Counted from the first letter of the stretch, positions 10,138-27,399 are shown. The stretch is 64,000 nt of DNA from an uncultured SAR86 cluster bacterium (GCA_902610905.1 CACLXS010000002.1:39808-103807), one strand, 5' to 3'. The notes: generated by a model not told the origin, from the sequence alone. Numbers and translations: made by a program.

Positions 10138-10160
10138 AATAATTTTCTTAATATTTCAAA

Positions 10161-11622: not shown

Positions 11623-12300
11623 TCAATCTATGAAATTAAGTGCTTGCTTTAACTCTTTGGGCGGCTCTGGCAAATCTCTAAAAATCCTCCATGCAATCTT
11701 TGTGCTTGGAAAAACAACCGCCCATGCGGTTATAAAAATCGCCAAAAAATATATGGTTATGCCTTTATTAGATACAAACCACTGTTCTAGTAAACCTTTG
11801 TATGGAGCAATGATATTGTCATAGAAATCAACCGATGCTGAAGCACCATGCATAATTTCTTCTTCGCCTCGAAAGATTATAGAGCCGACACCTGATAAAC
11901 CAGGACGTACTTTTTTAACAATTTCTTGAGTTTCAGCCGAATAAGAACCAAAGGTTTGAGCCGTTAGCGGTCTAGGCCCTATAACACTCATATCACCAAA
12001 GAGGATATTTAATAACTGAGGTAATTCATTAATTTTAGTTTTACGCAAAAATTTTCCTACTGGCAAAATCCTAGGATCTCCTTTCATTGTTACTGTTCCA
12101 GTGCCAATATTTGGGCTATCTTTAAGCATAGTTGCAAATTTAAGTAGCTTAAATACCTTTCCATTTTTACCAATACGATCCTGCAAAAAGAAGATTTCAC
12201 CCTCCCCAGAAAACCTTAAAATCAAAACAATTGGAACTAGCAACGGTGATAAAACTAACAATGCTAAACCAGAAAAAAATAAATCAAAAAAACGCTCCAT
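11623..12300 (-). CDS. Initiating phosphoglycosyl transferase (small PglC/WbaP-C-type bacterial sugar transferase)
   Basis: 225 aa with an N-terminal re-entrant helix, then FFLQDRIGKNGKVFKLLKFATM...DPRILPVGKFLRKTKINELPQLLNILFGDMSVIGPRPL, the Bac_transf signature. Confidence 0.85.
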   Translation of the reverse strand: MERFFDLFFSGLALLVLSPLLVPIVLILRFSGEGEIFFLQDRIGKNGKVFKLLKFATMLKDSPNIGTGTVTMKGDPRILPVGKFLRKTKINELPQLLNILFGDMSVIGPRPLTAQTFGSYSAETQEIVKKVRPGLSGVGSIIFRGEEEIMHGASASVDFYDNIIAPYKGLLEQWFVSNKGITIYFLAIFITAWAVVFPSTKIAWRIFRDLPEPPKELKQALNFID

Positions 12301-12302
12301 AA

Positions 12303-13490
12303 TTACATCCTTTGATCTAAATATTTACCAGTTTCTTTATGAGAAAATTCAGGCAGAAGGCTAAAGTATAATTTAACAATATCCTCTTTATTCCATATGC
12401 CTTTTTCTTTCAGTTCGTTCATTCCATTCATGAATTCATCTAACTTAGCTTCATTATATTCAGGCTGATTAGGAATAACTCCAATGGTTTCAAAACGCTC
12501 CATATCTAAGATTTCAGTATCAGTGAAAAACTCTTCAAAATCTTTCTCACCGGTTGTATCACTTTTAAAGAAATAACATGGCCAAAGTTTACTGGCTATT
12601 AACTCTTCAGCTCTGTCGCGAGCCTCATCCTCAGACTCACACTCATAAGGCTTATAACCTTTTTCTTTTAAATAATGAGTAGCTATCTCAGAAAATTTAA
12701 TTAGATGTAGCTTTTCACTGAGTTTAGGAAAAAAGATATCTCTATTGTTACCTAGAATTCCAGATAATAAGCATAGCTCTCCTGATTCTTGTGGAGTTAA
12801 AAAATAACGCCTTACATCATTTGGCGCAGAGAAAGGTTGTTTTTTGTTATACCGTTGATTAAATCCATGCAGAAGAGAGCCATCAGAAAAAGCAACATTT
12901 GCAAATCGTGCCATAGAAATTTCTTGATCTAAGCTTTCTTTCATCAAGAACATTTCCATTATTCGTTTACTAGCTCCCATCATATTTACTGGATTCGCAG
13001 CTTTATCAGTAGAAACACAAAAGTACTTACTTGTGCCTAATTCTTTTGCTAGTCTTAGGGTATTAACAGTATTAAAAATATTCACTGTTATCATACGCAT
13101 TAGTGTATAAGGATCCTTTTCACTTCTAACATGTTTTAGTGCTGATAAATTAAATACATAGTCATATGGGCCTTCATTATGCATGAGGGCTTCAAATTCA
13201 ATAGACCCACAATCAATGGCAAAAGTCCTGAAGTCACCAGAACCATAACCCGATGTACTTCTTATTTCGCGAACAAGTTCAACCATGTTGTTTTCTGAGA
13301 TATCAACTACATGAAGTAACTTAGGATCACGCTTAAAAATTTCTTTAGTAACCGCCTGACCAATTGAGCCAGCACCACCAATAACAAGAAAGCTACTTTT
13401 AGAAATGATATTTTCAATGAATACAGACTGATTTTCTATATCTTTGCTAAATAGCTCTGAGGACCTACCAATTAGTGACAGTACATTCAT
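12303..13490 (-). CDS. CapD/WbpM/PglF-like NDP-sugar 4,6-dehydratase/epimerase (Polysacc_synt_2 family, soluble form)
   Basis: 395 aa with the Rossmann motif FLVIGGAGSIGQAVTKEI and a downstream SDR core (STDKAANPVNMMGASKR). It sits next to the initiating transferase, like wbpM/pglF. Confidence 0.7.
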   Translation of the reverse strand: MNVLSLIGRSSELFSKDIENQSVFIENIISKSSFLVIGGAGSIGQAVTKEIFKRDPKLLHVVDISENNMVELVREIRSTSGYGSGDFRTFAIDCGSIEFEALMHNEGPYDYVFNLSALKHVRSEKDPYTLMRMITVNIFNTVNTLRLAKELGTSKYFCVSTDKAANPVNMMGASKRIMEMFLMKESLDQEISMARFANVAFSDGSLLHGFNQRYNKKQPFSAPNDVRRYFLTPQESGELCLLSGILGNNRDIFFPKLSEKLHLIKFSEIATHYLKEKGYKPYECESEDEARDRAEELIASKLWPCYFFKSDTTGEKDFEEFFTDTEILDMERFETIGVIPNQPEYNEAKLDEFMNGMNELKEKGIWNKEDIVKLYFSLLPEFSHKETGKYLDQRM

Positions 13491-13552
13491 AATTATATTT
13501 AAAAATTATTCGTATATTATATTACTAATAAAAGTTATTGCTTTATTCTAAA

Positions 13553-14770
13553 TTAATGAGATATTTCTTTCAAAAGTGATTCTGTTATTGATTTATAGCA
13601 ATAATTATTAACAGCAAATTGTCTCCCTTTTTTGCCCATATTTGCAAGTTCTGTAGTAGAAGTTGCCGCAAATAATTCAATAGCATCTGCAATAGCGATT
13701 GGATCTTCAGCCGGTACTGTTATACCAGCGCCTGCCAGATTTACAGGGTCACCTGGCCCTGAGTAGCTATGCAATACAGGTTTGCCTGAAATAAAATATT
13801 CTGGAATCTTGTTAGGCGCAACTCCATATTCATAAAGTTTAGAGTTTTGCCATCCAATATAGCAAATATCGAAGATCTCAAGAACACTCGATATTTGATT
13901 TTTAGGTACTTTGGGTAAAAACAAAATATTTTTGAGTTCATTATGCTTTACGAGTGCTTTCAAATCGTTGAGCTTCTCACCTTCACCAACAATGATAAAA
14001 AAAACTTTACTGGTTTTTAATTTAAATGCAGCCTCAACGAAATATTCCAAAGCATTTGCTATTCCAACAGAACCAGCATATCCAACTATAAGGCTATCCT
14101 TAGGTATATTATTTTTAAAATCAATACTTAGAGGTTGTGAGTCAAGCATCTCAGTTTCATCGTAACCATTTGGTAACAAAATAAATTTTTTTTTCTTGCC
14201 CAAAACCTCATTTATTCTAATGGGTAAATTTGGAAGATTAGATGATATTATTTCTGCGTTCTTAATAGAAAAATGCTCGGCCCATGACATTACTTTAAAT
14301 GCAATTGATGATTCTTTAATATTTCCCAAAGCTTCCAATGTTGCAGGCCAAACGTCTCTTATATCAAAACAAGATTTAGCTGAATATGCCTTTGATAAAA
14401 TTACTAAGGGAATTCCAACAAAAGGTGATGGTGAAGAGGCAAATATAAAATGTGGTTTATTTTTAATAATAAAATTTATAAAAAGCAGTTGAAAATTAAA
14501 AATAAACCAATTCATAATTCTTTTAACTGATCTAGACTTTGAATAATCTATAGAACTGATTGAAACTACATTAACACCATCAATAATTTTGTGCTTTGGA
14601 TTAGATAATCCAGAATTTAATAGATGATGATTTCTGGAAACAACATAGTAAACAATATATCCAGCTTTAGACAGGTTCTTCGCTAAGTAAAAAACTCGCC
14701 CTCCATACCCGTTTTCTGGAATAGTTCCATATTCGTTAATTAACCAAACAACTTTATCTTTTGATTTCAT
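13553..14770 (-). CDS. Glycosyltransferase family 4 (WbuB-like)
   Basis: 405 aa with a GT-B fold pattern: N-terminal EYGTIPENGYGGRVFYLAK and a C-terminal GT4 region (GYAGSVGIANALE...PNKIPEYFISGKPVL). Confidence 0.8.
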   Translation of the reverse strand: MKSKDKVVWLINEYGTIPENGYGGRVFYLAKNLSKAGYIVYYVVSRNHHLLNSGLSNPKHKIIDGVNVVSISSIDYSKSRSVKRIMNWFIFNFQLLFINFIIKNKPHFIFASSPSPFVGIPLVILSKAYSAKSCFDIRDVWPATLEALGNIKESSIAFKVMSWAEHFSIKNAEIISSNLPNLPIRINEVLGKKKKFILLPNGYDETEMLDSQPLSIDFKNNIPKDSLIVGYAGSVGIANALEYFVEAAFKLKTSKVFFIIVGEGEKLNDLKALVKHNELKNILFLPKVPKNQISSVLEIFDICYIGWQNSKLYEYGVAPNKIPEYFISGKPVLHSYSGPGDPVNLAGAGITVPAEDPIAIADAIELFAATSTTELANMGKKGRQFAVNNYCYKSITESLLKEISH

Positions 14771-16034
14771 TACTATGAAAAAAATATTTAGAGTTGAATA
14801 TTATAAGTTGCAATAGCATCATAAATGCTACACCGTTAGATAAAATACCAACTAATAAATCTGATCCCAGCAAGGGTCTAAAGGTTAGAATACATAAGCA
14901 TATAAGAGCCTGTATGGGCAATCTGTCTTGAAAGGCCTTATTATAAATAATTAACATCATAGATAATAGAATGTTATACATCATTAATAGCAATATTCCC
15001 CCCTGCAGATAAGCATTAGCAATATAGCCTGTATTGGTGTACTCACCCTCACGCTGCATATAAGAACTTATGATGTTTGAAACTGGCTCTATGTTGTTAT
15101 AAAAACTAAAGCCATACTCAAGTGCAAAATTAACATATGAATCAGATATAAGAACTGGCCAAAAAAATAGTCTTCTGAAAAATAAACTACCTATTAATCC
15201 ATAATCTCCAAAGCTCATAAGCATTAAAAATAATGAGAATACAAAAAAGATAATCAAGATAAAATTAAATTTATTTATTTTTGGTTTATCTGCCAAGAAG
15301 TTAAATATGAAATATATAGCGAATATTAATATTATGTTAAAAAAATAAGATTTATGATTAGTAAATCCAAATATTAAAAATTGTCCTAAAACAGCAAAAA
15401 ATATAATTAAATTTTTTCTTGAGTATAAACCCCATACAAGTATGAATGGAAATATAGAATAAGATAACCATTTAATAATGTATGCTAACACCCCGCTAAA
15501 TGTTTCCCTTGACTCATCCCTGTATGAATAAATATCAACAAAACTAAAGTTGAGATTGCCGCCTTTGTATTTAAAAAAGATAGATACAGTAATTAACGAT
15601 AAAGAAATTAAAGATAAGGCGACATATTTTTTTTTAAATTCAAATGGAACTAATTTTAATTTTGGTATGTTTGATCCAAAATTAGTAATTAGCAGTAGTG
15701 TAATGTAAGAGAATATATAAATACCATACAATAAATACGATATTGCATTATATGCAACCATTACTGAAGCAGGAAGAAGGATAATAAAAAGAATATAAAC
15801 TAAAAAAAAGTCTGATGGTTTTTCAAATTTTTTTGAAGGTAATACTGTTAGCAATAAATAGATTGATAATGTAACAACATGTCTGCCAAGACTTGGGTAA
15901 TTTAAGTTATATCCATAATATGCAAAATGATAATAAATAAATTTCTCATATGAGAAAAAAAATATCTCAAAAATTGCTATTGAAAATACAATAGTGTTTA
16001 TTAGAGAGAAAAAACTTGATTTTCTTATAACCAC
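14754..16034 (-). CDS. wzy: Polytopic membrane protein, probable O-antigen/repeat-unit polymerase (Wzy-like)
   Basis: 426 aa, extremely hydrophobic, with about 10-12 predicted TM segments and low sequence conservation. It lies among GT and Wzx genes. The assignment rests on context and topology only. Confidence 0.55.
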   Translation of the reverse strand: MVIRKSSFFSLINTIVFSIAIFEIFFFSYEKFIYYHFAYYGYNLNYPSLGRHVVTLSIYLLLTVLPSKKFEKPSDFFLVYILFIILLPASVMVAYNAISYLLYGIYIFSYITLLLITNFGSNIPKLKLVPFEFKKKYVALSLISLSLITVSIFFKYKGGNLNFSFVDIYSYRDESRETFSGVLAYIIKWLSYSIFPFILVWGLYSRKNLIIFFAVLGQFLIFGFTNHKSYFFNIILIFAIYFIFNFLADKPKINKFNFILIIFFVFSLFLMLMSFGDYGLIGSLFFRRLFFWPVLISDSYVNFALEYGFSFYNNIEPVSNIISSYMQREGEYTNTGYIANAYLQGGILLLMMYNILLSMMLIIYNKAFQDRLPIQALICLCILTFRPLLGSDLLVGILSNGVAFMMLLQLIIFNSKYFFHSNEIKR

Positions 16035-17095
16035 TATAATTCTTCTAAAAACGAAAGAAGTTGATCATCAAAAAATTTTATAGAATCAAAAAAAGAGTTA
16101 ATTTCACCTATATTATAAAAATCTTTATCAGCATAAGCATTTAAGAAATTTTCTTTAATTGATTTTTTCTCTCCAAAATTAAATACATAGCCTAAATTAA
16201 ATTTATCAACAGCCTCTTTCATATATGGCATTGAGCTAACAATAACGTTTGAGCCATTAGCAAGATATTCAAAAAGCTTGGTTGGTCTAGAGTCTATATA
16301 GTTAGTCGTATTAGCTAAACTAACAATTCCATACCTACTCTTGCTAATTAATTTTTTAACTTTTTTTTGTGCTATAACTCCTAAATATGTAACATTATTT
16401 TTCCAAAAAGATGTCTTTTTACATTTTTCTTCATACTCTGATGATGAAAAGGGACCGCAAATAATTAATCTAATATTTGTATTTTCTAGCGAATACATTA
16501 AGTCTAAGATTCCTCTATTGGGAGAAATTAGACCAGCATAAATAAAATCATGGATTTTTTTTTCAGACACTATTTTTGGTCTTTCTCTGGGGCTATTTTC
16601 AATTAAATAAGTTGATTTTTTAAGTTTTTTAAAGCGCAAAAATATTTCATCCGTAGAAGCAATTACTTTATTGACGAATAATAGAATGAAAAAATTTTCA
16701 ACTATTTCTAAAAAAAGCTTAATAGGAAGATATTTCGGGTGGTGTGAGGTAAACTGCAAAGGAAAATTTTCATGTGAATCATAAATAACTTTTATTGAAA
16801 AAATTTTAAAAAAAGGCGAAGCAATTAAAAGCTCTGGATCATGCAGTTGAACATATTCTGGTTTTTCGTAAATTATTCTAAATGTTCCAACAACTAGATT
16901 TTTTATTCTAGTTAAAATTTTTGAACCAAATGATGTGCTAATTTTTATTACTTTTTCAGGAAAATCTAAATTAAAACTTCCACCACAATAATAAATAGCT
17001 TGATGAGATGATTTTTGATTTGTACAGGACACAAATTTATGAAAAATTCTTGTTGACTGAGGAGAGTGTAAGGTAGAAAAGTGAATAATTTTCAT
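16034..17095 (-). CDS. Glycosyltransferase (GT4-like)
   Basis: 353 aa whose C-terminal half has the GT4 donor-binding pattern (IYAGLISPNRGI...SRPTKLFEYLANGSNVIVS). Confidence 0.7.
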   Translation of the reverse strand: MKIIHFSTLHSPQSTRIFHKFVSCTNQKSSHQAIYYCGGSFNLDFPEKVIKISTSFGSKILTRIKNLVVGTFRIIYEKPEYVQLHDPELLIASPFFKIFSIKVIYDSHENFPLQFTSHHPKYLPIKLFLEIVENFFILLFVNKVIASTDEIFLRFKKLKKSTYLIENSPRERPKIVSEKKIHDFIYAGLISPNRGILDLMYSLENTNIRLIICGPFSSSEYEEKCKKTSFWKNNVTYLGVIAQKKVKKLISKSRYGIVSLANTTNYIDSRPTKLFEYLANGSNVIVSSMPYMKEAVDKFNLGYVFNFGEKKSIKENFLNAYADKDFYNIGEINSFFDSIKFFDDQLLSFLEEL

Positions 17096-17158
17096 TAATT
17101 AATTCGCTTAATGGATTGGTTCTTTTGGGATTAGAGAAGATGTCATTATTTTCATTGC

Positions 17159-18385
17159 TTATTTGAAAAGCTCTTTCTCATTAATATTATTATAAAAATA
17201 CATATTACTATTATGCCAAAGTAAATCAAAATGGCCCTTATATTTACTAACCTGACAAATAATGAATTTTAACTCTTCTATCAACTTATTTTTATTTAAT
17301 GAGAGATACCCAAGAGCTGTTGTATCCATAAATGCCAAGGGATAATAAAGAGTTTTACTTTGACATTCTTTATCTTCAATCCACTTTCTAAATGGATAAC
17401 ATGTTCCATTCCTAAAGCCTATTACAGATGCGAAACCACATGATGTGTCAGTTACAATCTCATATTTATCAAGATCTTCAGCTATGGACGTTGAGTCATA
17501 TCTTAGATAATGATAGCGCACATGCTCACATTTAATATGTGTAAGCTTTTTAAAATTTTTTATTTCTTTACTCAATATTGATGAGTCAAATCCAGCATCA
17601 TATGATGGATGCAAGCCTATAATTTGTTTTTTTTCTCTAAGCCTGGTGATTAAGTCAATATGATCTGCAAGATTATACCGCCCATCATACCTTGTAATGC
17701 CTCCAACCATAAAATAAAAGGTCGATCTCATATTATTAGAACGAGTTTCATTAATAATAAATTCAAAATTATAGTAAGGGTCTCTTTTTAAGATAAAGTC
17801 TTTAAATAAGATTAATGAAGACTTCAGTCTAAAAAGCATACTTCCCTTTGACAAAATACGCTTTAAAGCTCTCAATATATTTATAGGCTTGTCAAAAGCA
17901 CATATATTATCAATATCGTGTGATACTGAGCATGTGCCTGAAGTTTTATTGTATTGAATTTCTAACTTGTTTAAAGTTGATAACTGTAGCCTAATCTCTT
18001 CTACAATTTGATCAAGAACGGGATATTTATAATTAACAGAATCTAGAGGTAAATTTCTACCATGAGCATCTGTATGTGAACTAACTAAGTTAGGGAGTTC
18101 ATTAAGCATTGAAAATGTAAGATCAACCAAATCAAATTGAATATCTATAGATTCCGATGCTCTTACTTCTTTTTTTATATCAATATTGGATAAAAAATTA
18201 GAATAAGAGCCTGGCTTGTTCTCAGATATATGAATTAAGTTTTTACGGCGATTTAGATACTCAATATCACCATAGACTATTGTTATATCAATGTCTGATT
18301 TACTAAATCTATTAAACAAAAAATCAATTACATATTTAACTTTTTTATCACTTGTTTGAGTATTATTAATAATATTGATTTTCAT
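17159..18385 (-). CDS. Polysaccharide deacetylase-like protein (CE4 / beta-alpha-barrel deacetylase superfamily, with an N-terminal DUF7033-like domain)
   Basis: 408 aa with motifs SHDIDN, STFYFM, GLHPSYD and RYHYLR. These resemble the metal-binding and catalytic blocks of deacetylase-family proteins found in O-antigen loci. The assignment is from motif recall only. Confidence 0.45.
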   Translation of the reverse strand: MKINIINNTQTSDKKVKYVIDFLFNRFSKSDIDITIVYGDIEYLNRRKNLIHISENKPGSYSNFLSNIDIKKEVRASESIDIQFDLVDLTFSMLNELPNLVSSHTDAHGRNLPLDSVNYKYPVLDQIVEEIRLQLSTLNKLEIQYNKTSGTCSVSHDIDNICAFDKPINILRALKRILSKGSMLFRLKSSLILFKDFILKRDPYYNFEFIINETRSNNMRSTFYFMVGGITRYDGRYNLADHIDLITRLREKKQIIGLHPSYDAGFDSSILSKEIKNFKKLTHIKCEHVRYHYLRYDSTSIAEDLDKYEIVTDTSCGFASVIGFRNGTCYPFRKWIEDKECQSKTLYYPLAFMDTTALGYLSLNKNKLIEELKFIICQVSKYKGHFDLLWHNSNMYFYNNINEKELFK

Positions 18386-18873
18386 TTTCTTGAAGAAATA
18401 ACTTTAGCAGGATTACCAACTGAAATTGAATATGGCGGAGTATCTTTTGTGACTATGCTCCCCGCCCCAATAACACTACCTTTTCCAACTGTAACGCCTT
18501 GTAATATTATTGCTCCAGCACCGATCCAAACATCATCTTCTATAGTAATAGGTATGTCTTTTCTTCCCTGTTGATTAATAGGAATTTCAGTGTTTTCGAA
18601 AAGATGATTTTTAGACCATATTATTACCTTTGGTCCCAATAAGACATCATCACCAAGGTTTATGGTTCCGCATAAATGAGAATTACAATTTACATAAAAA
18701 TTTTTACCAATATTTATTTGAGAAGTGGGCATTATTCTTACTCCACTCTCAATAATTCCACTTTCAATAGTTACATTTTTTCCTAACTTAACTTTACTTT
18801 TTATTTTTATTCCAGACAGTCTTAATTTATTAACTCTGATTAACGAGATAATAGTTGATATTAAATTCTTCAC
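18382..18873 (-). CDS. Left-handed beta-helix (hexapeptide-repeat) acetyltransferase
   Basis: 163 aa containing IEDDVWIGAGAIILQGVTVGKGSVIGAGSIVTKDTPPYSISVGNPAKVI, typical of Mac/LacA-type acetyltransferases. Confidence 0.85.
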   Translation of the reverse strand: MKNLISTIISLIRVNKLRLSGIKIKSKVKLGKNVTIESGIIESGVRIMPTSQINIGKNFYVNCNSHLCGTINLGDDVLLGPKVIIWSKNHLFENTEIPINQQGRKDIPITIEDDVWIGAGAIILQGVTVGKGSVIGAGSIVTKDTPPYSISVGNPAKVISSRK

Positions 18874-20036
18874 TTTTTAAATCTCCCAAAAGTATTTTTT
18901 AAAAAAGGTTTCCAATCTCTAGTGCAAAAACTTGCATGAATGACAAATGGATTTAAAAAATATCTAAAAAATAAGATTAAATTTTTAAATATATGATCTC
19001 CTTTAATAACATTAACTAGATGTAATGTGTTATAGGTATATATTTTAGAGGTAACTGTTTGTTTTCTATTATTTAATTTACAGGTCAGCTTTTGGTTTGT
19101 CGCATTAAGCATATCAATATAAGGAATATTTACCCCAGCTAATTTTCCAGCATAATGCCACATCATATATCTAAAGTTTATTTCCATTAAAAAATATTTA
19201 TTTCTTTTAATACAATATTTAAACTCTGGCTGAACTATGCCTGTAAAGTTTCCTTCCTTTACAAGTCTTCGTGCAGATTCATAAACATCTTTATTCCACT
19301 TTGCTAATGATGATGCAAAAACGCCAAATTGCCAGGGTGACTGGCTAAGCTTTCTTCCTGTCCAATAGGCAATAATTTTTCCTTCGGAACATATACATAG
19401 ACAAGACCATACTTCTCTTGGATCAGCCTCGATTACTTCAGATACCAAAAAACTATCGTCCTCACTTTTTGAATTTAAAAATGAAATTAATTCAGAATTA
19501 CAGGAAAATTTTTTTGCTCTAAAATAGTTCTTGCTTGTGAGCTCTCGATTATCACGAGATTCAGGTTTAACTACGCAAGTAAAATCTTTAATTTTCTTAA
19601 TATTTTCAATTATACTTTTTCTAGTTCCACTATAGGTTTCTGGACAGTCTACCTGAGCACTTTTAGCTAATTTATACTGATTGATTTTTGAATTAAAGCT
19701 TGTATTAAATTGGTGGCTAGTCCAGAGAACATTTTGTTCTAGATTGCTTTGACAAATTTCATCTAAATGCCAATCTGCTGTTGCAAACAAAATAATTTTT
19801 TTTGAATTATTTTGTTTTGCGAAATCATTAATAGTTTTTAAAATAGAAGAATTTTTATTGTATGGAATAAAGGTGTCGATAAGCTTGCTGACTGAAACCA
19901 TTGCATTTGAATCAGCAACAATTGCAATGTTGCAATGTCCGTAAAGGCTTCTTACTATTCCATATGCATTTATATGTCCGCCCAAGACTAAAGCGATATT
20001 TTCTTCTAATTTAAGATTCTTTTTAAAATGTTCCAT
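18870..20036 (-). CDS. ATP-grasp family ligase (COG3919-type carboxylate-amine ligase)
   Basis: 388 aa. The N-terminus ALVLGGHINAYGIVRSLYGH matches the COG3919 pre-ATP-grasp pattern. Also present are VVKPESRD, EVIEAD and the Mg/ATP-site-like FLMEINFR (E-x-N). Confidence 0.65.
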   Translation of the reverse strand: MEHFKKNLKLEENIALVLGGHINAYGIVRSLYGHCNIAIVADSNAMVSVSKLIDTFIPYNKNSSILKTINDFAKQNNSKKIILFATADWHLDEICQSNLEQNVLWTSHQFNTSFNSKINQYKLAKSAQVDCPETYSGTRKSIIENIKKIKDFTCVVKPESRDNRELTSKNYFRAKKFSCNSELISFLNSKSEDDSFLVSEVIEADPREVWSCLCICSEGKIIAYWTGRKLSQSPWQFGVFASSLAKWNKDVYESARRLVKEGNFTGIVQPEFKYCIKRNKYFLMEINFRYMMWHYAGKLAGVNIPYIDMLNATNQKLTCKLNNRKQTVTSKIYTYNTLHLVNVIKGDHIFKNLILFFRYFLNPFVIHASFCTRDWKPFLKNTFGRFKK

Positions 20037-21127
20037 ACATGTTTATAACCAAATTGATTGAAGAGTTTTATAGCAATATAGCTCCAGCGAGTAAATTTTA
20101 CAGTATTTGAAACCAGAAAATATATTGATTTATAAAAATTGTTATTTGGTACAAGCTTAAGAATTAGTTTTTTAAAATGATATTTAATAAAAAATAATAA
20201 ATAGTATATTCCTTTAAGTGGTTTGACTGATGATGAAGAAAATGACTGAATCATAAAACTTTCTTTAAAAGAATGGTTATGAGTATCAAATTCACAAATT
20301 AAAGAGATTCTATTTTTTAATCTCCATTTTTTTAAGGTGAGTTCATTTACTTTATGATACGAGTATGTCTCCTTAAAATATTCTCTTTTTTTACTTAATT
20401 GTGTTGGAGGCTCGATAACGAAATTTGGGAATAAAAAATTACCTAATGAATAATATACAGGCTTATTATAAAATCTTTCAGATGGGAGAATTATATGAGG
20501 GTGCATTCCAATAATCGCTTTAACATTTTGATGATATAAAATTTTCTTTGCAAGATTTCTAGTATAGGGATGTGGAATTGGAACATGCTCAACACCCCAA
20601 TGAATAAATATAATAAAATCTTTCTCTTTATGTTTGTTCAATTGTAAACTTATACTCTTATAATCACCTGCCATTAACCCAGGCTTTGAATCTGTTGCTA
20701 AAGCTATATTATTAAGTGTAGGCTTATTAAATGCGCAACATCCCAATATCCATATATTGTTACTCAAAAGTGTTGGTTGCTCAGCTTCATCTTTGTTAGA
20801 ACCAGCACCAAATACTTTAGAGCCAGACGTTTCTATTATTCTTTTTATATATCCAATATTATCAAGCCCTCCGTCATGAATATGATTATTAGCAAGTCCG
20901 ATATGTGTTGGTTTTAGATTGCCAATTCCACGAATTAAACTATTTTCAGATGACAAAACTGTAGATTTATTTTTAATACTAGATGAATAAATTGATTGTT
21001 CAATATTTGTAATAAGGAAATCAAAATTCTTATTAGGATATTCAATTTCAAATGATTTATTTTCTAAGCAACCTACAAAACATGTATCACCAGTGAATAT
21101 AGCTTTTCTACTAATATTATTTATCAT
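20006..21127 (-). CDS. CapA/PgsA-like (PGA_cap) metallophosphoesterase-fold protein
   Basis: 373 aa with GDTCF, GLANNHIHDGG, FGAG, IFIHWGVEH, IIGMHPHI and YYSLGNFLF. These follow the order of conserved blocks in the poly-gamma-glutamate CapA family. Confidence 0.7.
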   Translation of the reverse strand: MINNISRKAIFTGDTCFVGCLENKSFEIEYPNKNFDFLITNIEQSIYSSSIKNKSTVLSSENSLIRGIGNLKPTHIGLANNHIHDGGLDNIGYIKRIIETSGSKVFGAGSNKDEAEQPTLLSNNIWILGCCAFNKPTLNNIALATDSKPGLMAGDYKSISLQLNKHKEKDFIIFIHWGVEHVPIPHPYTRNLAKKILYHQNVKAIIGMHPHIILPSERFYNKPVYYSLGNFLFPNFVIEPPTQLSKKREYFKETYSYHKVNELTLKKWRLKNRISLICEFDTHNHSFKESFMIQSFSSSSVKPLKGIYYLLFFIKYHFKKLILKLVPNNNFYKSIYFLVSNTVKFTRWSYIAIKLFNQFGYKHVWNILKRILN

Positions 21128-22340
21128 AATTATGTGTAATAAAATTTCTTAAAATTAATAGCAAAGCTAAATAAAATATAAATGAAACCGCAACATATGC
21201 GTTCAATAACAAAATATAGTTCCCTTCATAATTATTAAAAATATATAAAAGTAACATATTTGTAATGCCCAAATAAGTAATATTCCAATACAAAGAAATA
21301 TCCTGCTTACTATAAACATTTGTTGTCATGGAAACTGGTACAACAATGAGTTTTATAAAGAATATTGGAACAAGAATCGTAGCTAATTGAAAGATACCCT
21401 GCCAATTTTCATCAATGATCCCATGATTAATATTTTGAGAAAAAAAGTAAGCAGAGCTAAAAATTACTCCAGAGATAGCTACCAAAATTAAAGTTGTTTT
21501 GTTGAATAGCTTTAATGCTTTTACTTTACTTTCCTTAATTTTTGATGCGGATCTATAATAAACTCTTCCAACCGCTGATCCAATTAAAGCAGATGGAGCT
21601 CCCAATAACCTTTCTATGTATGCATAATGTCCTAATACAACCTCACCTCCAGAGCCTCCAATAAAAAATGGAATAGAGCTTTTTCCCATTGTATTAATGA
21701 AAATACTTGGTGCAGAAAATTTCGGAAATTTATAATGACGATTAAAAATTAATAATATTTTTTTTATTTTGAATTTAATTTTTAAATTAGGCCAAATTAA
21801 ATAATTAACTAGCATTAATGAAAGAATATGCGCCAAAAGCATCACATAAATATTGCTTATGAAAAGGTATCCAAAAATTATTTGAATTGATACCAATACA
21901 ATATTTTTAATAATTTGAGATTTAGCAATCTTAGAATATTTTTCTTGTCTGTTGTAAAAAGAATAGTTTATATTCCAGAGAGCTGTAAAAAATATTCCCA
22001 AAGGGACTGCAAAAAGAAATATTTCTAGATGATCATAAACTATTACGCTCAAGAGTGATGCAATTAAAGTAAATACAATAGAAATTAAAGAGGCTATAAA
22101 TGAGAGCAGAATTGTTGTGCTATACAAAATCTTTATATGATGATTTTTTGCTATCACAATTGCATGCTCTAACCTTAAGGAGGCTGCAGAAGAGACAAGA
22201 TTTACTATAGCGATATATAAGGCATATATTGCAAAGGCTTTTGGTTCGTATATCTTAATCAATATAGGTAAAGACAATACGACAATTATTTGAGATGCGG
22301 TAGATGCAGAGGCTAGGTTTATAACTGATCTAATAAACAT
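21117..22340 (-). CDS. wzx: Oligosaccharide flippase (Wzx, MOP superfamily)
   Basis: 407 aa with about 12 TM segments. The N-terminus NLASASTASQIIVVLSLPILIKIYEPKAFAIYALY is typical of Wzx/RfbX. Confidence 0.8.
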   Translation of the reverse strand: MFIRSVINLASASTASQIIVVLSLPILIKIYEPKAFAIYALYIAIVNLVSSAASLRLEHAIVIAKNHHIKILYSTTILLSFIASLISIVFTLIASLLSVIVYDHLEIFLFAVPLGIFFTALWNINYSFYNRQEKYSKIAKSQIIKNIVLVSIQIIFGYLFISNIYVMLLAHILSLMLVNYLIWPNLKIKFKIKKILLIFNRHYKFPKFSAPSIFINTMGKSSIPFFIGGSGGEVVLGHYAYIERLLGAPSALIGSAVGRVYYRSASKIKESKVKALKLFNKTTLILVAISGVIFSSAYFFSQNINHGIIDENWQGIFQLATILVPIFFIKLIVVPVSMTTNVYSKQDISLYWNITYLGITNMLLLYIFNNYEGNYILLLNAYVAVSFIFYLALLLILRNFITHNYDK

Positions 22341-22352
22341 TTCTAGCTAATT

Positions 22353-23486
22353 TTAATTTTTCAAAACTTCTTCTATAATTTTATTTTGTGCACTCTCTGA
22401 AAGATATGGATGCATTGGAAGACTAAGGACACTTTTAGAGAGCATTGCAGAAACTTCTACACCTGATGATACTCTTGGATAATGAGAATATCCCTTTTGT
22501 GAGGATAAAGGTATGGGATAATAAACAACAGAGGGTATTCCTGAAGATTTAAGGTTTTTTTGAAAAAGGTCCCTATCTTTATCATTTAAAATCAAAGTAT
22601 ATTGAGCCCATGCGCTAGACATATAATCTGGAATGTTGGGGGTAAGATATTTGACTGATAAAGCTTCTGTATAAATATTTGCAACGTTGTTTCTGAGTTT
22701 CAATTCTTCTTCAAATAGTTTTAATTTTTCAATTAAGATAGCTGCTTGAATGGTATCAAGCCTTGAATTCAAACCCACTATGACATTATCGTATTTTTCA
22801 GAGCCTTTGCCATGCAGCCTTAAAGAATTTATCTTCTGAGCATAATCATCGTTATTTGTAAAAATGGCACCTCCATCACCATAGCAACCCAAAGGTTTAG
22901 CGGGGAAAAAACTTGTAGTAGTTATGTCACCCAATGAACCTACTTTTGTATTCCTAAATGACGCACCAAAGCTTTGAGCACCGTCTACAAGAACTTTTAT
23001 ATTTTCTGAATGTGCTATTTTTGATATGACATCTATATCTGCTGGTCTTCCAAATAAATCAACCGCTATTACACATTTAGGGTTAAGCCCTTCGTTGCGG
23101 CAATCAATTATTGCCTGTTTAAAACTTTCAGAATCGATGTTAAAGGAATCTTTTGAAACATCAACAAAATATGGGGTTGCACCTAGTTGTGCTGGAGCTT
23201 CCGCAGATGCAACATATGTAAATGAGGGAATAAATACAACATCTCCTCTGCCAATACCCCAAGTCATCAAGGCAAGGGTAAGTGCATCAGTCCCGTTAGC
23301 ACAAGTGAGCGCATGCTTAGCTTTTGTAAAATTTTTCAGCTGCTCTTCAAAAGTTTTTACCTCTGGGCCCATAATATATTGACCATGATCTAGGACATTT
23401 TTTATGGCAATATCTAATTTTGATCTAATTAGTTTTTGTTGTGCAACTAAATCTATAAACTTTGCAGGTTCTGAGTATTCACTCAT
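22353..23486 (-). CDS. wbpE: DegT/DnrJ/EryC1-type PLP aminotransferase, WbpE-like (UDP-2-acetamido-2-deoxy-3-oxo-glucuronate aminotransferase)
   Basis: 377 aa containing GPEV..FE, CANGTDALTLAL and the FFPAKPLGCYGDGGA lysine block. It lies next to wbpD-, wbpB- and wbpA-like genes. Confidence 0.8.
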   Translation of the reverse strand: MSEYSEPAKFIDLVAQQKLIRSKLDIAIKNVLDHGQYIMGPEVKTFEEQLKNFTKAKHALTCANGTDALTLALMTWGIGRGDVVFIPSFTYVASAEAPAQLGATPYFVDVSKDSFNIDSESFKQAIIDCRNEGLNPKCVIAVDLFGRPADIDVISKIAHSENIKVLVDGAQSFGASFRNTKVGSLGDITTTSFFPAKPLGCYGDGGAIFTNNDDYAQKINSLRLHGKGSEKYDNVIVGLNSRLDTIQAAILIEKLKLFEEELKLRNNVANIYTEALSVKYLTPNIPDYMSSAWAQYTLILNDKDRDLFQKNLKSSGIPSVVYYPIPLSSQKGYSHYPRVSSGVEVSAMLSKSVLSLPMHPYLSESAQNKIIEEVLKN

Positions 23487-24063
23487 TATTTATCTCCACA
23501 AGGCTGTCTTGCTCTATAAGTTTATATTTTGTTCCTTCGATTGGGCATATTAAATCATCTCCTAGGCGCCCACCAGCTTTACTAATCCACCCTATCCTTT
23601 TTGCAGGAACGCCTGCCATCAATGCAAATGGTGGAACATCTTTAGTAACTAGTGCTCCAGCGCCAATAAAGCAATATTCACCTAAATTATTACCACAAAT
23701 GATAGTTGCATTTGCTCCTATAGATGCTCCTCTTTTAACAAGAGTTTTACGATACTCATGTTTACGAACTATCTCTGACCTAGGATTGTTAACATTAGTA
23801 AAGACACAAGAAGGCCCACAAAATACACCATCTTCTATGAAAACTCCCTCATATATACTTACATTATTTTGTATTTTTACACTATTTCCTATATTTACAT
23901 TTGGTCCAATGCAAACATTTTGACCTAACGAACAATCTTTACCAATATTACTATTTTGTAGAATATGGCTAAAATGCCATATTTTTGTACCGGTTCCAAT
24001 ATTCACATCACTATCAATATAAGACGACTCATGTATATATACATTTTTAAAAATACAACTCAT
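23479..24063 (-). CDS. wbpD: WbpD/WlbB-like hexapeptide N-acetyltransferase (UDP-2-acetamido-3-amino-2,3-dideoxy-glucuronate N-acetyltransferase)
   Basis: 194 aa containing IHESSYIDSDVNIGTGTKIWHFSHI...VFTNVNNPRS...GANATIICG..LGEYCFIGAGALVTKDVPPFALMAGVPAKRIGW. Confidence 0.8.
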   Translation of the reverse strand: MSCIFKNVYIHESSYIDSDVNIGTGTKIWHFSHILQNSNIGKDCSLGQNVCIGPNVNIGNSVKIQNNVSIYEGVFIEDGVFCGPSCVFTNVNNPRSEIVRKHEYRKTLVKRGASIGANATIICGNNLGEYCFIGAGALVTKDVPPFALMAGVPAKRIGWISKAGGRLGDDLICPIEGTKYKLIEQDSLVEINNE

Positions 24064-25055
24064 AAGTCTTTAATTTTAACTGATTTATTTTGAATTGAAG
24101 ATAGGGATGAGGCAGAAAGAACCTTTAATACTTTCAAGCCCTCGTTAAAATCTGTTAAGGGGGGCTGGCCTTTACAAACTACTTCTATAAAATGGTTACA
24201 CTCATTTTTTAATGGTTCAGATTTTTCAACCCTTATGTAATTTTGTTCGCCCTTTGTTATCGTTGGCAGTTCTTTGAGAGTCTTAATTGTATGATGGTAT
24301 ATAGAAAGTTTCTTTTCCCAGACTTGCGTATCATCAAATATAGCCATTCCTTTATTTCCTATAACAACTAATTTTTGTTCTTTGCAAGGATGAAGCCATG
24401 AAACGAATACATGAGCTGAAAATTGAGATTTAAAATCTAAATGTAAAATAGAAGTATCAGCAATATTTGGTTGGATAATGCATGATGATGTTGTCTTTAC
24501 TATCTGAGGCTCTTCTTCGGCCAACGATAAAATCATTGAAATATCATGAGGTGCAAAGCTCCAAATCACATCTTCTTCAGTACGGATTTTACCAAAACTC
24601 AAGCGATTAGAATAAATGTAATTTAAATCTCCTAATTCTCCTGATTTGACAATTTCTTTTAATTTAACAAAAACCGGATGATATTGAAGAAGATGTCCTA
24701 CCATAAGTTGCACATTATTTTTTTTTGCAGTTTCTATCATTAAATTGGCCTCACTTACATTCATAGCTAGAGGCTTTTCAACAAATACATGTTTTTTTGC
24801 ATTCATAACATCAATTGCCAAAGATGCATGAAACTCAGCTGGGACAGCTAAAACAACAGCATCGATATCTTTATTAGTAAGGACTTCTGAAAAATTGAAA
24901 TGTGGAACATCATATTCATTTGCAAAAAAATTAGCTACATCGTTGTTAGGATCGCATACCGCTCCTAATGCACCGATTTCAGCATAATTTCTTACTAAAT
25001 TTTTACCCCAATAACCACATCCAACAACGGCAATATTTCTTTTTATTTTAACCAT
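24060..25055 (-). CDS. wbpB: Gfo/Idh/MocA oxidoreductase, WbpB-like (UDP-GlcNAcA 3-dehydrogenase)
   Basis: 331 aa with Rossmann IAVVGCGYWGKN and VFVEKPLA. It sits between the wbpA-like and wbpD-like genes. Confidence 0.75.
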   Translation of the reverse strand: MVKIKRNIAVVGCGYWGKNLVRNYAEIGALGAVCDPNNDVANFFANEYDVPHFNFSEVLTNKDIDAVVLAVPAEFHASLAIDVMNAKKHVFVEKPLAMNVSEANLMIETAKKNNVQLMVGHLLQYHPVFVKLKEIVKSGELGDLNYIYSNRLSFGKIRTEEDVIWSFAPHDISMILSLAEEEPQIVKTTSSCIIQPNIADTSILHLDFKSQFSAHVFVSWLHPCKEQKLVVIGNKGMAIFDDTQVWEKKLSIYHHTIKTLKELPTITKGEQNYIRVEKSEPLKNECNHFIEVVCKGQPPLTDFNEGLKVLKVLSASSLSSIQNKSVKIKDL

Positions 25056-25082
25056 TCTTAGATATTAAAATTATGAGTGATA

Positions 25083-26378
25083 TTAAAGTCTAAAAACATC
25101 AAAACCTTCCTCGATTAAACTTTCTTTTTTGTAAATTGATTTTATGTCAGCTATTACTGGTGATAATCCTTTGCACATATCTCTTAAATACTCACAGCTA
25201 AGATTGCGGTACTCTTCATGTCCTACAGCAACAATGATTGAATCAAGCTTGTGTCTTACTTCATCTATTTTTGTTAATTTAATGCCGTAAGTTTGTTCAA
25301 CATCGACTGGATCAGCCCATTCATCTGAAACAATAACATTTGTACCCCATTTTTTAAGTTCAGCAATAACATCAATTATTTTAGTATTTCGAATATCAGG
25401 ACAATTTTCTTTAAAAGTGATTCCTAAAACACCTACATTACTACTATGAATATCAATCCTATTTAATACCATTTTTTGTATTAACTTATTGACCACATAT
25501 AAAGCCATATTATCGTTAATCCTCCTTCCAGCTAAAATTACTTCAGGGTTATATCCAACTTGTTCAGCCTTATGTGTTAAATAGTATGGATCTACTCCTA
25601 TACAATGTCCTCCTACAAGTCCTGGCTTAAAAGGCAAAAAATTCCACTTGCTTGCAGCTGCATCTAAAACATCAAGAGTATCAACCTCAAGTCTATTAAA
25701 AATTACTGAAAGTTCATTCACTAAAGCAATATTTAAATCTCTCTGAGTATTCTCAATAACTTTTGCAGCCTCTGCTACTTTGATACTTGAAGCCTTAAAG
25801 GTTCCTGCTGTAATAATAGTTTTATATAGATCATCAATTTTTTTACTAGTCTCTGGTGTTGAGCCACTTGTAATCTTAACAATTTTAGTGAGAGTATTTA
25901 CCTTATCACCAGGGTTAATTCTTTCTGGGCTATATCCACAAAAAAAGTCTTTATTAAATATTAACTGTGAATAGGATTCAAGTATTGGTACGCAAACTTC
26001 TTCAGTACAACCAGGATAAACAGTTGATTCGTAAATAACAATATCATCAACCTTTAGATATTTACCTATCATTTTACTTGCATTAATAATTGGATTTAAG
26101 TTTGGCCGATTAACTTCATCAATAGGAGTTGGAACTGTAACGATGTATACATTAACGTCTTTTAAATCATCAAGGTTATAGGTAAAGTTGAGATGTCTAG
26201 ATTTCTGAATATCCTCACTGTTTACTTCAAGGGTTTGGTCTATCCCTTTTTTTAAATCTTCAATTCTTGATTCACTTATATCAAAACCAATAGTTTCTAT
26301 AGAATTGCCAAATTCTACTGCTAGCGGTAAACCAACATACCCTAAACCAATTATTGCTACTTTTTGTTCATCTATCAT
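25083..26378 (-). CDS. wbpA: UDP-N-acetyl-hexosamine 6-dehydrogenase (WbpA/WbpO/TviB family nucleotide-sugar dehydrogenase)
   Basis: 431 aa containing VAIIGLGYVGLPLAVEF, YSPERINPGD and the catalytic GGHCIGVDPYYL. Confidence 0.85.
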   Translation of the reverse strand: MIDEQKVAIIGLGYVGLPLAVEFGNSIETIGFDISESRIEDLKKGIDQTLEVNSEDIQKSRHLNFTYNLDDLKDVNVYIVTVPTPIDEVNRPNLNPIINASKMIGKYLKVDDIVIYESTVYPGCTEEVCVPILESYSQLIFNKDFFCGYSPERINPGDKVNTLTKIVKITSGSTPETSKKIDDLYKTIITAGTFKASSIKVAEAAKVIENTQRDLNIALVNELSVIFNRLEVDTLDVLDAAASKWNFLPFKPGLVGGHCIGVDPYYLTHKAEQVGYNPEVILAGRRINDNMALYVVNKLIQKMVLNRIDIHSSNVGVLGITFKENCPDIRNTKIIDVIAELKKWGTNVIVSDEWADPVDVEQTYGIKLTKIDEVRHKLDSIIVAVGHEEYRNLSCEYLRDMCKGLSPVIADIKSIYKKESLIEEGFDVFRL

Positions 26379-26428
26379 AAAAACTTTTCCAAATATAAGA
26401 AATTAATTATCCCCTTGGATATTCTTTT

Positions 26429-27331
26429 TTATCTTTCTCTATATTGTTGGATAAAGATAAATATCAAAGATAAGAATGCTCCAAAAAACGTGCTGACTAT
26501 TACTATTATTGATCTTGATGGAGATGATTTATATTCAGGTACTATCGGTGGATCAATTATTTTAAAAACATAACTGTCGGTAGATGATGCAAGCATTAAT
26601 GTTCGCATTTGATTTTCAAGCAGCCTGGATGTTACCTCTTTGATAGATTGAATACTAGTAGTATTTTGAGCTTCATTTAAATAGTCAATTGATTTTTTAG
26701 CCAACATTTTATCTGCCTCACGCATACTTTCATTTATTTGTTCGATAATAATATTAAGCCATTTTTGAGCAATAATAGGAGATTTGTGATTAACGCTCAC
26801 TGAAATAAATGAGGTTCTACTATTTTCATTAACAGTTATATTTTCTTTGTATACTCTATAAGCTTCTTGAAGTGATGGTTGGTTTTTCTCACTATATTTT
26901 GAAGAACCTATCCAGGTTTGTGTATCATTTTTATAGATTTTATTGTCGTAAACTATAGTGTTATTTTCAGCATCCCATTTTTTTACAGCCATCAAGTTTT
27001 CTAATTGAATATTGGGTATAAAAAAATTAGCAAAAAAATCAAAAGATTTTATTCTTTCAATACCCTCTTTACTTTTACTAGTCTGATCAACTGGAATAGA
27101 AACTCCAGCCAAAGAGCCTAAAGAAGATAAACTTCCTAGTTTTGATGACATGGCATCTTGTGAATTTGATGGTAATAAAAGAACTTTAGATGAATATATG
27201 TTAGCCAAACTTAATGCATATAGAACTGAACAAACTGCAAAAAATGTAGATATACTTAGTATAGTAAGCTTTTTTTTCCACAGAATAGTAAAGATTTCCT
27301 TTAGATTAATTTCGTCACTAGCTGTATCCAT
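26429..27331 (-). CDS. wzz: Polysaccharide chain-length determinant (Wzz, PCP-1 family)
   Basis: 300 aa containing EINLKEIFTILWKKK plus TM1, a periplasmic coiled region, and a C-terminal P-rich segment plus TM2 (SPSRSIIVIVSTFFGAFLSLIFIF). Confidence 0.8.
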   Translation of the reverse strand: MDTASDEINLKEIFTILWKKKLTILSISTFFAVCSVLYALSLANIYSSKVLLLPSNSQDAMSSKLGSLSSLGSLAGVSIPVDQTSKSKEGIERIKSFDFFANFFIPNIQLENLMAVKKWDAENNTIVYDNKIYKNDTQTWIGSSKYSEKNQPSLQEAYRVYKENITVNENSRTSFISVSVNHKSPIIAQKWLNIIIEQINESMREADKMLAKKSIDYLNEAQNTTSIQSIKEVTSRLLENQMRTLMLASSTDSYVFKIIDPPIVPEYKSSPSRSIIVIVSTFFGAFLSLIFIFIQQYRER

Positions 27332-27399
27332 AATATATTACCACTTTCAATATGAATTAATTATATCAAGATATATATTAAAAATAATAAAAATTATGT

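Follow-up and report, generated by a model that had tools for sequence, protein, structure and literature searches.

A candidate cassette for N-acyl remodeling of a nucleotide sugar in a SAR86 polysaccharide locus

What reaction could bring a CapA-like protein, a predicted ATP-grasp ligase, an acetyltransferase and a deacetylase-like enzyme together within one bacterial polysaccharide locus? The question is raised by a stretch of 64,000 nucleotides from an uncultured SAR86 cluster bacterium (GCA_902610905.1 CACLXS010000002.1:39808-103807; hereafter the window), in which four open reading frames (ORFs) on the minus strand, here called A, B, C and D in their order of transcription, lie between wzx and the glycosyltransferases. 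A sequence-only reading of the window had singled them out as a candidate undescribed system, and the ORF listing reproduced its coordinates, overlaps and gene order exactly, as well as the position between wzx and the glycosyltransferases. The overlaps measure 11 nt for wzx/A, 31 nt for A/B and 4 nt each for B/C and C/D, and a gap of 63 nt lies between D and the next glycosyltransferase (16034-17095). Every gene of the region lies on the minus strand. The four genes are:

A, 20006-21127, minus strand: 373 amino acids, PGA_cap/CapA-like protein
B, 18870-20036, minus strand: 388 amino acids, predicted ATP-grasp ligase
C, 18382-18873, minus strand: 163 amino acids, GTG start, left-handed beta-helix (LbH) acetyltransferase
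D, 17159-18385, minus strand: 408 amino acids, CE4-fold, VimE-like putative deacetylase

With somewhat better than even confidence, we favor the reading that these genes make up a single nucleotide-sugar tailoring cassette, which would remodel the N-acyl group of UDP-2,3-diacetamido-2,3-dideoxy-alpha-D-glucuronate (UDP-GlcNAc3NAcA) before it enters a Wzx/Wzy-type O-antigen or capsule. In the scheme that we propose, D would act first, as a VimE-like metallo-deacetylase of carbohydrate esterase family 4 (CE4), and take off the 2-N-acetyl group of UDP-GlcNAc3NAcA. B would then activate a carboxylate as an acyl-phosphate and join the acid to the freed sugar amine; this acid would most likely be an amino acid, linked via its alpha-carboxyl or via the side-chain carboxyl of Asp or Glu. 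Subsequently, C would acetylate the amino group of the attached residue, a step that a formyltransferase would carry out in sister loci, and A would act on the ligase product, most likely by an L-to-D epimerization at the C-alpha of the attached residue. This would yield a 2-N-(N-acetyl-aminoacyl)-3-N-acetyl-glucuronic acid residue, and the net scheme would repeat the Wbp/Vim logic with an ATP-grasp ligase in place of the FemAB-type VimA. We take N-2 as the target of D by the reasoning published for VimE, since removal of the 3-N-acetyl would undo the work of WbpD, and a WbpD-like gene is present here. What we infer is which substrates are used and at which position of the sugar, in what order the steps run, which acid is attached, that C is N-specific and what A does.

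Products of this kind have ample chemical precedent. N-aminoacyl and N-(acyl-aminoacyl) sugars are common serotype-defining epitopes in the O-antigens and capsules of Vibrio, Proteus, Providencia, Escherichia coli, Shigella and marine bacteria. Known O-antigen substituents include L-alanyl-GlcN as well as N-acetylglycyl, N-acetyl-L-seryl, N-acetyl-L-threonyl, N-acetyl-D-aspartyl and (3-hydroxybutyryl)-D-alanyl groups. Providencia carries Qui4N bearing either N-acetyl-D-aspartyl or N-acetyl-L-aspartyl, and V. anguillarum O2 displays N-formyl-L-alanyl alongside 2-acetamido-3-amino-glucuronamide and ManNAc3NAcA. Across O-antigens, N-acetyl- and N-formyl-aminoacyl amino sugars occur in both the L and the D configuration.

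Folds and catalytic residues of the four proteins

The genes, their folds, their intact catalytic residues, their conserved synteny, fusions and alternative partners are shown here. For B and D, searches of the PDB with single sequences returned noise only, so that structure prediction was required. The AlphaFold2 (AF2) model of D (predicted local distance difference test score, pLDDT, 89.3) had as its top Foldseek matches (E 5e-5 to 2e-4) 3rxz, ArnD (8t0j; a lipid-linked Ara4FN deformylase), the N-deacetylase of NDST1 (8ccy), HP0310 (3qbu) and the CE4 pseudoenzyme 6hm9, which agrees with a CE4-fold deacetylase. Pfam alone did not call D above threshold; the protein has an N-terminal DUF7033 region, and its top NCBIfam match was [quoted passage not shown] (NF053580, 3e-28). 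Among 28 homologues, D157 and D159 (in SHDID), H259 and S261 (GLHPSY), R290 and H292 (RYHYLR) and H391 (LWHN) are invariant, and residues of this set could be matched to the Asp-His-His triad by motif position, not by superposition.

B gave ATP-grasp matches in Pfam that all fell below threshold, and no TupA-type match at E≤1. Its AF2 model (pLDDT 89.5) retrieved 553 PDB chains at E≤1e-3 in Foldseek, and among the matches listed all were ATP-grasp enzymes, including biotin carboxylase, PurK, PurD, carbamoyl-phosphate synthetase and RizA, as expected for the three-domain ATP-grasp fold. Residues K117, K157, K229, E271, K273, E285, N287 and R289 do not vary among 27 sequences, and the segment MEINFR, which contains the Mg-binding motif E-x-N-x-R, aligns with MEMNTR of biotin carboxylase 2vpq. 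Sequence and model together predict that B is an ATP-grasp carboxylate-amine ligase of the COG3919 or “D-aspartate ligase”-like family, and its homologues carry the label “D-aspartate ligase / predicted ATP-grasp carboligase” at the Joint Genome Institute (JGI). The family is large: an exhaustive profile search returned 18,426 cluster representatives at E≤1e-3, of which 3,799 remained at E≤1e-30. RefSeq names its members “hypothetical protein” or, misleadingly, “carbamoyl-phosphate synthase,” and the annotations of the matches from a plasmid tblastn with B were uninformative.

A matched Pfam PGA_cap (PF09587) with 105.4 bits against a cut-off of 27. Its sole relative in the PDB that sequence could detect was the epimerase MslH (8gq9; E 1e-4 with the single sequence, 1e-12 with a profile). 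In an alignment of 29 sequences that included Bacillus CapA, residues D14, N41, E43, N81, H82, D85, H176, E180, H209, H211 and N230 of A were invariant, and in the profile alignment D14, E43, N81, H82, D85 and H211 paired with D11, E44, N87, H88, D91 and H295 of MslH, which are the metal ligands and the two catalytic His/Asp dyads, His88/Asp91 and His295/Asp11, as defined by mutagenesis (PMC10406935); H292 of MslH likewise aligns with the invariant set. By sequence, then, the catalytic residues of A are intact and the protein looks catalytically competent; the MslH-type residues are also generic to the metallophosphoesterase fold, and hence necessary but not sufficient for an epimerase. Against NF038314, the MslH-type NCBIfam equivalog, A scored 20 bits, far from the cut-off of 700. 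The check on catalytic residues that the sequence-only reading had proposed thus came out positive for A, B and D, with the triad of D placed by motif position.

The N-terminal hydrophobic region of Bacillus CapA is absent from A, and this holds for the whole CapA subfamily of polysaccharide loci, which instead shares a C-terminal extension of ~100 amino acids with a conserved KKWRLxNRxS motif. An extra C-terminal region of about 80 residues, hydrophobic or amphipathic, had been claimed for A; it is real and amphipathic, the final 78 amino acids being basic (13 K/R, 0 D/E) and free of any transmembrane-grade segment. Since there is neither an N-terminal anchor nor a transmembrane-grade segment in the tail, A is predicted to be cytoplasmic and possibly bound peripherally to the membrane. 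We rejected A as the CapA of a poly-gamma-glutamate (PGA) synthetase, as the N-terminal anchor and CapB/CapC are both absent at the locus: no CapB/CapC-like gene was found among the assigned locus genes.

What A might do instead is suggested by MslH, whose metal-assisted C-alpha epimerization of an N-acylated residue with a free carboxylate is the only activity demonstrated for the PGA_cap family (PMC10406935). By this analogy, the role of A would be one other than the poly-amino-acid or glutamyl synthesis to which the ATP-grasp/CapA pairing had first been thought to point. We tentatively suggest, at well below even confidence, a post-ligation epimerase: a cytoplasmic CapA/MslH-type enzyme that would act on an amino acid which an ATP-grasp enzyme has ligated to a nucleotide- or lipid-linked sugar. 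If true, the N-acetyl- or N-formyl-D-aminoacyl sugars found in O-antigens could be made by a route that needs no tRNA, and the large PGA_cap family would have a general role beside amide ligases, that of inverting the configuration of each newly added residue. If MslH chemistry applies to A, the attached residue should keep a free alpha-carboxylate; a linkage through the side-chain carboxyl of Asp or Glu would provide one, as in the N-acetyl-D-aspartyl and N-acetyl-L-aspartyl Qui4N of Providencia, and so would a residue placed on the uronate carboxyl.

C, finally, matched Pfam Hexapep (PF00132) with 64 bits (cut-off 27), and its nearest families were LacA, WbbJ and Maa. The O-acetyltransferases LacA and Maa scored ~85 bits and the N-acetyltransferases DapH and QdtC 60-67 bits. 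That C is the N-capping enzyme of the ligated residue’s amine is a proposal that we derive from the displacement of its gene in related loci, described below.

Conservation, fusions and exchanged partners

The order A-B-C-D recurs in 20 fetched loci, among them a fully syntenic marine contig with 53% identity (L093), a V. vulnificus capsule locus (L090), Pseudidiomarina aestuarii (L035), a Psychrosphaera metagenome-assembled genome (MAG; L030), an Akkermansiaceae genome (L091) and marine metagenome contigs. Where such loci extended far enough upstream, Wbp genes and/or wzx always stood ahead of the cassette. Because homologues are conserved in the same order elsewhere, A to D are genuine genes and not chance ORFs. 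A few kilobases downstream of the Akkermansiaceae cassette we also noted a second, partial PGA_cap gene (L091, 16990-17493). Some cassette-bearing loci (L001, L003 and L006) carry an extra AsnB-type amidotransferase and some (L006 and L091) HisH/HisF-like pairs, which hints that this sugar, or one beside it, is turned into a uronamide or receives an acetamidino group; the window locus has neither.

Beyond the full cassette, B is widely paired with D. In 36 of the 80 B-anchored genome loci, a gene of the D type is found no more than 3 kb from B. These loci come from Bacillota, Bacteroidota, Gammaproteobacteria, Actinomycetota, Patescibacteria and methanogens; among their taxa are Syntrophomonas, Brevibacillus, Balneola, Flavobacterium, Patescibacteria, many Actinomycetota, Methanococcoides, Methanolobus and Methanosarcina. 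The Brevibacillus D and B genes interrupt a wbpA-B-D...E operon, and a Methanosarcina plasmid carries genes for B, a “polysaccharide deacetylase family protein” and a flippase, in this order. C is directly downstream of B in 11 of the 80 genome loci and in most of the loci that contain A.

A shows a different, asymmetric dependence. We anchored a second count on A. It covers the 37 metagenome loci that match A well and extend 1.2 kb or more downstream, and the B of the window detected a B-like ATP-grasp gene in 28 of them. Among the other nine, six have an ORF one or two genes downstream that bears the family's N-terminal signature; the three scanned with Pfam all matched ATP-grasp families, in two cases with less than the gathering score. 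A itself is present in 2 of the 80 B-anchored loci, so A seems to need an ATP-grasp enzyme and not vice versa. The co-occurrence of ATP-grasp and PGA_cap genes in glycan loci, which the sequence-only reading had asked about, is thereby confirmed, and CapA is not the odd member that this reading had seen in it: a CapA-like/ATP-grasp pairing is nearly the norm in this CapA subfamily and not peculiar to the window.

Further evidence on the acceptor came from fusion proteins. We took the long proteins among the best representatives of the B family and scanned ten of them for domains. They comprised Polysacc_deac_1 + ATP-grasp (P0356), ATP-grasp + Polysacc_deac_1 + ATP-grasp + glycosyltransferase (P0302), ATP-grasp + DegT aminotransferase (P0378), Wzx + ATP-grasp (P0238), ATP-grasp + GT4 glycosyltransferase (P0313 and P0234) and double ATP-grasp proteins (P0235, P0260, P0272 and P0301); some of these could be gene-calling artefacts on metagenome contigs. 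As deacetylases and aminotransferases both create a sugar amine, these fusion partners make such an amine the most likely acceptor of B. The sequence-only reading had left the uronate carboxylate as the other choice, which the fusions disfavor; we have given it less weight and keep it among the alternatives below.

The exchange of individual genes is equally informative. In one locus (L173), a D homologue with 29% identity is directly preceded by an Acetyltransf_6 gene of the FemAB/VimA type, the combination known from vimA and vimE, from which it follows that the D family partners with either a VimA-type transferase or an ATP-grasp enzyme. Two further loci (L122, 9104-11004, and L130, 8868-10855) present Wbp genes, wzx, A, Formyl_trans_N, an ATP-grasp gene and D, with no LbH acetyltransferase; their ATP-grasp enzyme is more divergent and the VimE-like deacetylase comes after it. 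A formyltransferase in the place of C favors the N-acylation of an amine as the job of C.

Separately, seven loci from Thermoleophilia MAGs (L054, L062, L064, L076, L079, L085 and L087) contain two tandem ATP-grasp paralogues, after which come a VimE-like deacetylase and glycosyltransferases, and no Wbp gene is found in the surrounding 10 kb; these may direct a dipeptidyl decoration on a simpler amino sugar.

Weighing the cassette against other explanations

Taken together, these comparisons support the proposed sequence of deacetylation, ligation and capping, through the Wbp genes upstream, the homology of D to VimE, the co-occurrence, the fusions and the formyltransferase exchange, and the scheme of the sequence-only reading stands to that extent, as a proposal drawn from sequence comparison. 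Several observations weigh against it. D scored 98.6 bits against the VimE equivalog, far below the cut-off of 440, and on this measure of sequence it is a distant homologue of VimE, not an orthologue. The D of the window moreover ends at an in-frame stop, “...NEKELFK*AMKIMTSSLIPKEPIH*” (17108-17161, minus strand), and 99%-identical relatives run to 425 amino acids: the gene is a nonsense-truncated allele minus 17 C-terminal residues, with all conserved motifs upstream of the premature stop. No D was found within 8 kb in 39 of the 80 B loci, Methanosarcina especially, and A, missing from most B loci, is an accessory. The closest characterized relatives of C are the O-acetyltransferases LacA, Maa and WbbJ, so that by sequence C might instead O-acetylate the sugar or a Ser/Thr hydroxyl; its assignment as an N-capping acetyltransferase, made already in the sequence-only reading, draws on the gene displacement, and its nearest relatives speak for the other chemistry. 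MslH-type chemistry, and by analogy that of the poly-gamma-glutamate system too, would be unfit for an aminoacyl group linked by its alpha-carboxyl. The functions proposed for the cassette come from comparison, and the activity of VimE was itself deduced from genetics and mass spectrometry.

The alternative that survives best, though we consider it unlikely, splits the cassette into two modules that act on the same sugar: B would amidate the uronate C-6 with an amino acid that A would epimerize, and D would swap the N-acyl group together with C or the formyltransferase. Its appeal lies in MslH, whose metal binds a C-terminal carboxylate and which epimerizes an N-acylated residue, for which a uronoyl-amino acid would be exactly the right kind of substrate. 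A is tied to the ATP-grasp enzyme much more tightly than to C or D, the formyltransferase could N-formylate a sugar amine directly, and amino-acid uronamides exist, as in Treponema medium, where ManNAc3NA is amidated with L-ornithine. The ATP-grasp domain of Cj1438 likewise amidates glucuronate in the HS:2 capsule of Campylobacter jejuni. The B family, however, is fused to amine-generating deacetylases and an aminotransferase, and to a 6-dehydrogenase in none of the ten scanned fusions; a WbpA-like dehydrogenase lies within 10 kb in 12 of the 80 B loci, compared to the 36 that have D within 3 kb. AsnB-type amidotransferases, the usual users of a uronate carboxyl, are encoded in three of the related loci (L001, L003 and L006), and a C that re-acetylates the amine freed by D would be futile unless it used another acyl-CoA. 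Compared to a single N-acyl-remodeling cassette, two modules are thus a better fit to MslH chemistry and a worse one to the fusions and to the weak linkage with 6-dehydrogenases.

A second alternative, to which we assign a still smaller probability, concerns A only and leaves the rest of the single-cassette reading as it is: A might be a hydrolase, a phosphoesterase or amidase that dephosphorylates a ligated amine donor or cleaves pyrophosphate. The C. jejuni HS:2 pathway, where phosphate is taken off a phosphorylated amine donor after ligation, offers a model. A has the calcineurin-like metallophosphoesterase fold, its conserved residues are the general metallophosphoesterase set, and MslH is the one PGA_cap member with a demonstrated activity. 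Yet MslH, the sole solved structure that matches A by sequence, is no phosphatase and has only one metal bound (PMC10406935), and the cassette contains no kinase or phospho-donor gene.

We find it improbable that the product is an oligo-amino-acid side chain, for instance gamma-glutamyl, built by an iterative B with A in the CapA role of poly-gamma-glutamate synthesis. Such a product would account for the membership of A in PGA_cap, and the tandem or fused double ATP-grasp genes of the B family suggest that more than one residue can be added; iterative ATP-grasp enzymes such as RimK and cyanophycin synthetase exist. The window locus, on the other hand, has one ATP-grasp gene only, and no CapB/CapC-type gene lies beside A in the window locus or in related loci with listed called genes. 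A is without the Bacillus CapA anchor and predicted to be cytoplasmic, and a capping acyltransferase right after the ligase argues for a stop at one residue.

Mere co-location of four unrelated tailoring enzymes in a variable polysaccharide island is very improbable, for although polysaccharide loci are mosaics and many B-containing loci are without A and C, the A-B-C-D order in 20 loci from distant taxa, the overlapping reading frames, the fusions and the function-preserving gene displacements all stand against it.

Locus setting and relation to known systems

By its gene content, the surrounding region is a Wzx/Wzy-type polysaccharide locus, for an O-antigen or a capsule. In order of transcription, its remaining features are:

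27400-27486, minus strand: tRNA-Leu(taa), which bounds the locus
26429-27331, minus strand: wzz-like chain-length regulator (NCBIfam), the first gene in transcription order
25083-26378, minus strand: WbpA-like, TviB/WbpA-type UDP-GlcNAc 6-dehydrogenase (NCBIfam, 557 bits)
24060-25055, minus strand: WbpB-like, UDP-GlcNAc 3-dehydrogenase (NCBIfam, 193 bits)
23479-24063, minus strand: WbpD-like, NeuD/PglB-type LbH N-acetyltransferase (NCBIfam)
22353-23486, minus strand: WbpE-like, DegT-type aminotransferase (NCBIfam)
21117-22340, minus strand: wzx-like flippase (ORF with polytopic sequence), directly upstream of A
16034-17095, minus strand: glycosyltransferase (NCBIfam)
14754-16034, minus strand: wzy-like polymerase (NCBIfam)
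13553-14770, minus strand: glycosyltransferase (NCBIfam)
12303-13490, minus strand: Polysacc_synt_2-type dehydratase (NCBIfam)
11623-12300, minus strand: Bac_transf initiating transferase (NCBIfam)

Within the Wbp genes (22353-26378), several NCBIfam scores fall below the equivalog cut-offs and the family assignments are consistent; this complete WbpA/B/D/E set upstream of the cassette is the presumed source of UDP-GlcNAc3NAcA. In most related loci, wzx-homologous ORFs lie upstream of A, and those that are called as genes match Pfam Polysacc_synt or Polysacc_synt_3. The gene order of the downstream assembly genes (11623-17095) is kept in L093 and L001. A 153-residue ORF on the plus strand (23462-23923), antisense to the WbpD- and WbpE-like genes, is almost certainly a spurious shadow ORF. 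The G+C content of the polysaccharide locus (10000-27400) is 27-30%, compared to ~29-35% over most of the remaining window, and a tRNA-Leu border with low G+C is typical of a hypervariable glycan island. Beyond the tRNAs, at 27631-29407 (minus strand), inspection of the sequence revealed three small genes: an ORF of 136 amino acids with a nucleotidyltransferase-like “GHQ” motif, a P loop kinase-like one of 137 (GLPGSGKT), and one of 255 that resembles a cytidylyl/adenylyltransferase fused to a cupin-like domain. These may provide another activated sugar. Identical proteins are encoded in Tara surface-ocean assemblies and on a 141-kb contig in NCBI and ENA; the GTDB species representatives do not include the window’s lineage, and the top match to B among them has 32% identity.

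A-B-C-D is a candidate for the long-missing genes that make N-aminoacyl sugar epitopes. A conserved and portable cassette would give a genetic marker that predicts such epitopes from genomes, V. vulnificus capsule types included, together with a defined enzyme set and an ATP-dependent counterpart to the VimA route. It would possibly also provide the first functional context for CapA-like proteins beyond poly-gamma-glutamate and lasso peptides, and V. vulnificus, a pathogen that can be cultured, carries it (proteins ELR8704293.1 and EIV8488850.1). In the literature that we searched, we found nothing tying an ATP-grasp enzyme, a CapA-like gene or DUF7033 to N-aminoacyl decorations or GlcNAc3NAcA, and nothing relevant on DUF7033/PF23019/NF053580, on ATP-grasp with ManNAc3NAcA or WbpD, on ATP-grasp with CapA, wzx and deacetylase, or on AglU with threonine and ATP-grasp. 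Relative to that literature, the novel elements would be the ATP-grasp acylating enzyme, its coupled cytoplasmic CapA-like partner and the interchangeable acetyl and formyl capping.

How, then, does the cassette relate to systems that are already described? It is neither a PGA synthetase, as it lacks the anchor and CapB/C, nor a strict VimE/VimA system, given the low equivalog score of D and the absence of VimA. It appears to be an ATP-driven counterpart of the tRNA-dependent Wbp/Vim pathway, to which its likeness is closest. In that pathway of Porphyromonas gingivalis and Tannerella forsythia, WbpA/B/E/D make UDP-GlcNAc3NAcA, from which VimE is proposed to take the 2-N-acetyl group, and Ser or Gly is then added by VimA (Veith et al. 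2020, PMC7468200). The term “undescribed system” was to this degree too strong, for deacetylation followed by aminoacylation is published there (PMC7468200); the ATP-grasp enzyme in place of VimA and the CapA-like partner are new. Both systems have the precursor genes WbpA/B/D/E, which here adjoin the deacetylase, and homologous deacetylases, and in both the 2-N-acetyl would come off before an amino acid goes onto the freed amine; L173 even combines a D homologue with a VimA-type gene. In contrast, the window locus has no VimA (FemAB/Acetyltransf_6-type) gene and an ATP-grasp gene in its place, activation would proceed by acyl-phosphate and not by the route of VimA, the capping C and the CapA-like A are additional, and the cassette belongs to a marine planktonic Wzx/Wzy O-antigen or capsule, whereas Vim serves the anchor glycan of the type IX secretion system.

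The other comparisons concern single proteins. With the CapA/PgsA of PgsBCA, A shares the PGA_cap family, the metal and catalytic residues and an amide-forming, amino-acid-handling ligase as a partner. It differs in that this partner is an ATP-grasp enzyme and not the Mur-ligase-type CapB/PgsB, that there is no CapC, and that A is unanchored, carries KKWRLxNRxS and a basic amphipathic C-terminal extension, and is embedded in a sugar pathway. With MslH, the epimerase of a lasso peptide’s C-terminal Trp (8GQ9, PMC10406935), A shares the counterparts of D11, E44, N87, H88, D91 and H295 and plausibly a metal-assisted C-alpha deprotonation of an N-acylated residue, the epimerase activity of A being putative. 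MslH, unlike A, works on a ribosomal peptide substrate bound to the recognition partner of a RiPP system (RiPP, a peptide made on the ribosome and modified after translation); A has low similarity to it and another C-terminal region.

For B, the likeness to the D-aspartate ligase of Enterococcus faecium is at the level of the family label, COG3919 ATP-grasp, along with the proposed amine acceptor on a UDP-linked sugar derivative and a genetic link to an enzyme that would supply the D-isomer. That enzyme links the carboxylate of an amino acid to the epsilon-amine of Lys in UDP-MurNAc-pentapeptide, so its acceptor is not a sugar ring amine, and its genetically linked partner, the source of the D-isomer, is not CapA-like: it is a racemase that acts on the free amino acid. 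Cj1438 activates the sugar’s own carboxylate. Its C-terminal domain and the TupA-like orf2 of V. alginolyticus, described as an “ATP-grasp fold amidoligase” in a capsule locus (PMC11382117), resemble B as capsule-locus ATP-grasp enzymes that add an amine or amino-acid decoration, and they differ from it as members of other ATP-grasp subfamilies whose loci pair them with neither a deacetylase nor a CapA-like protein.

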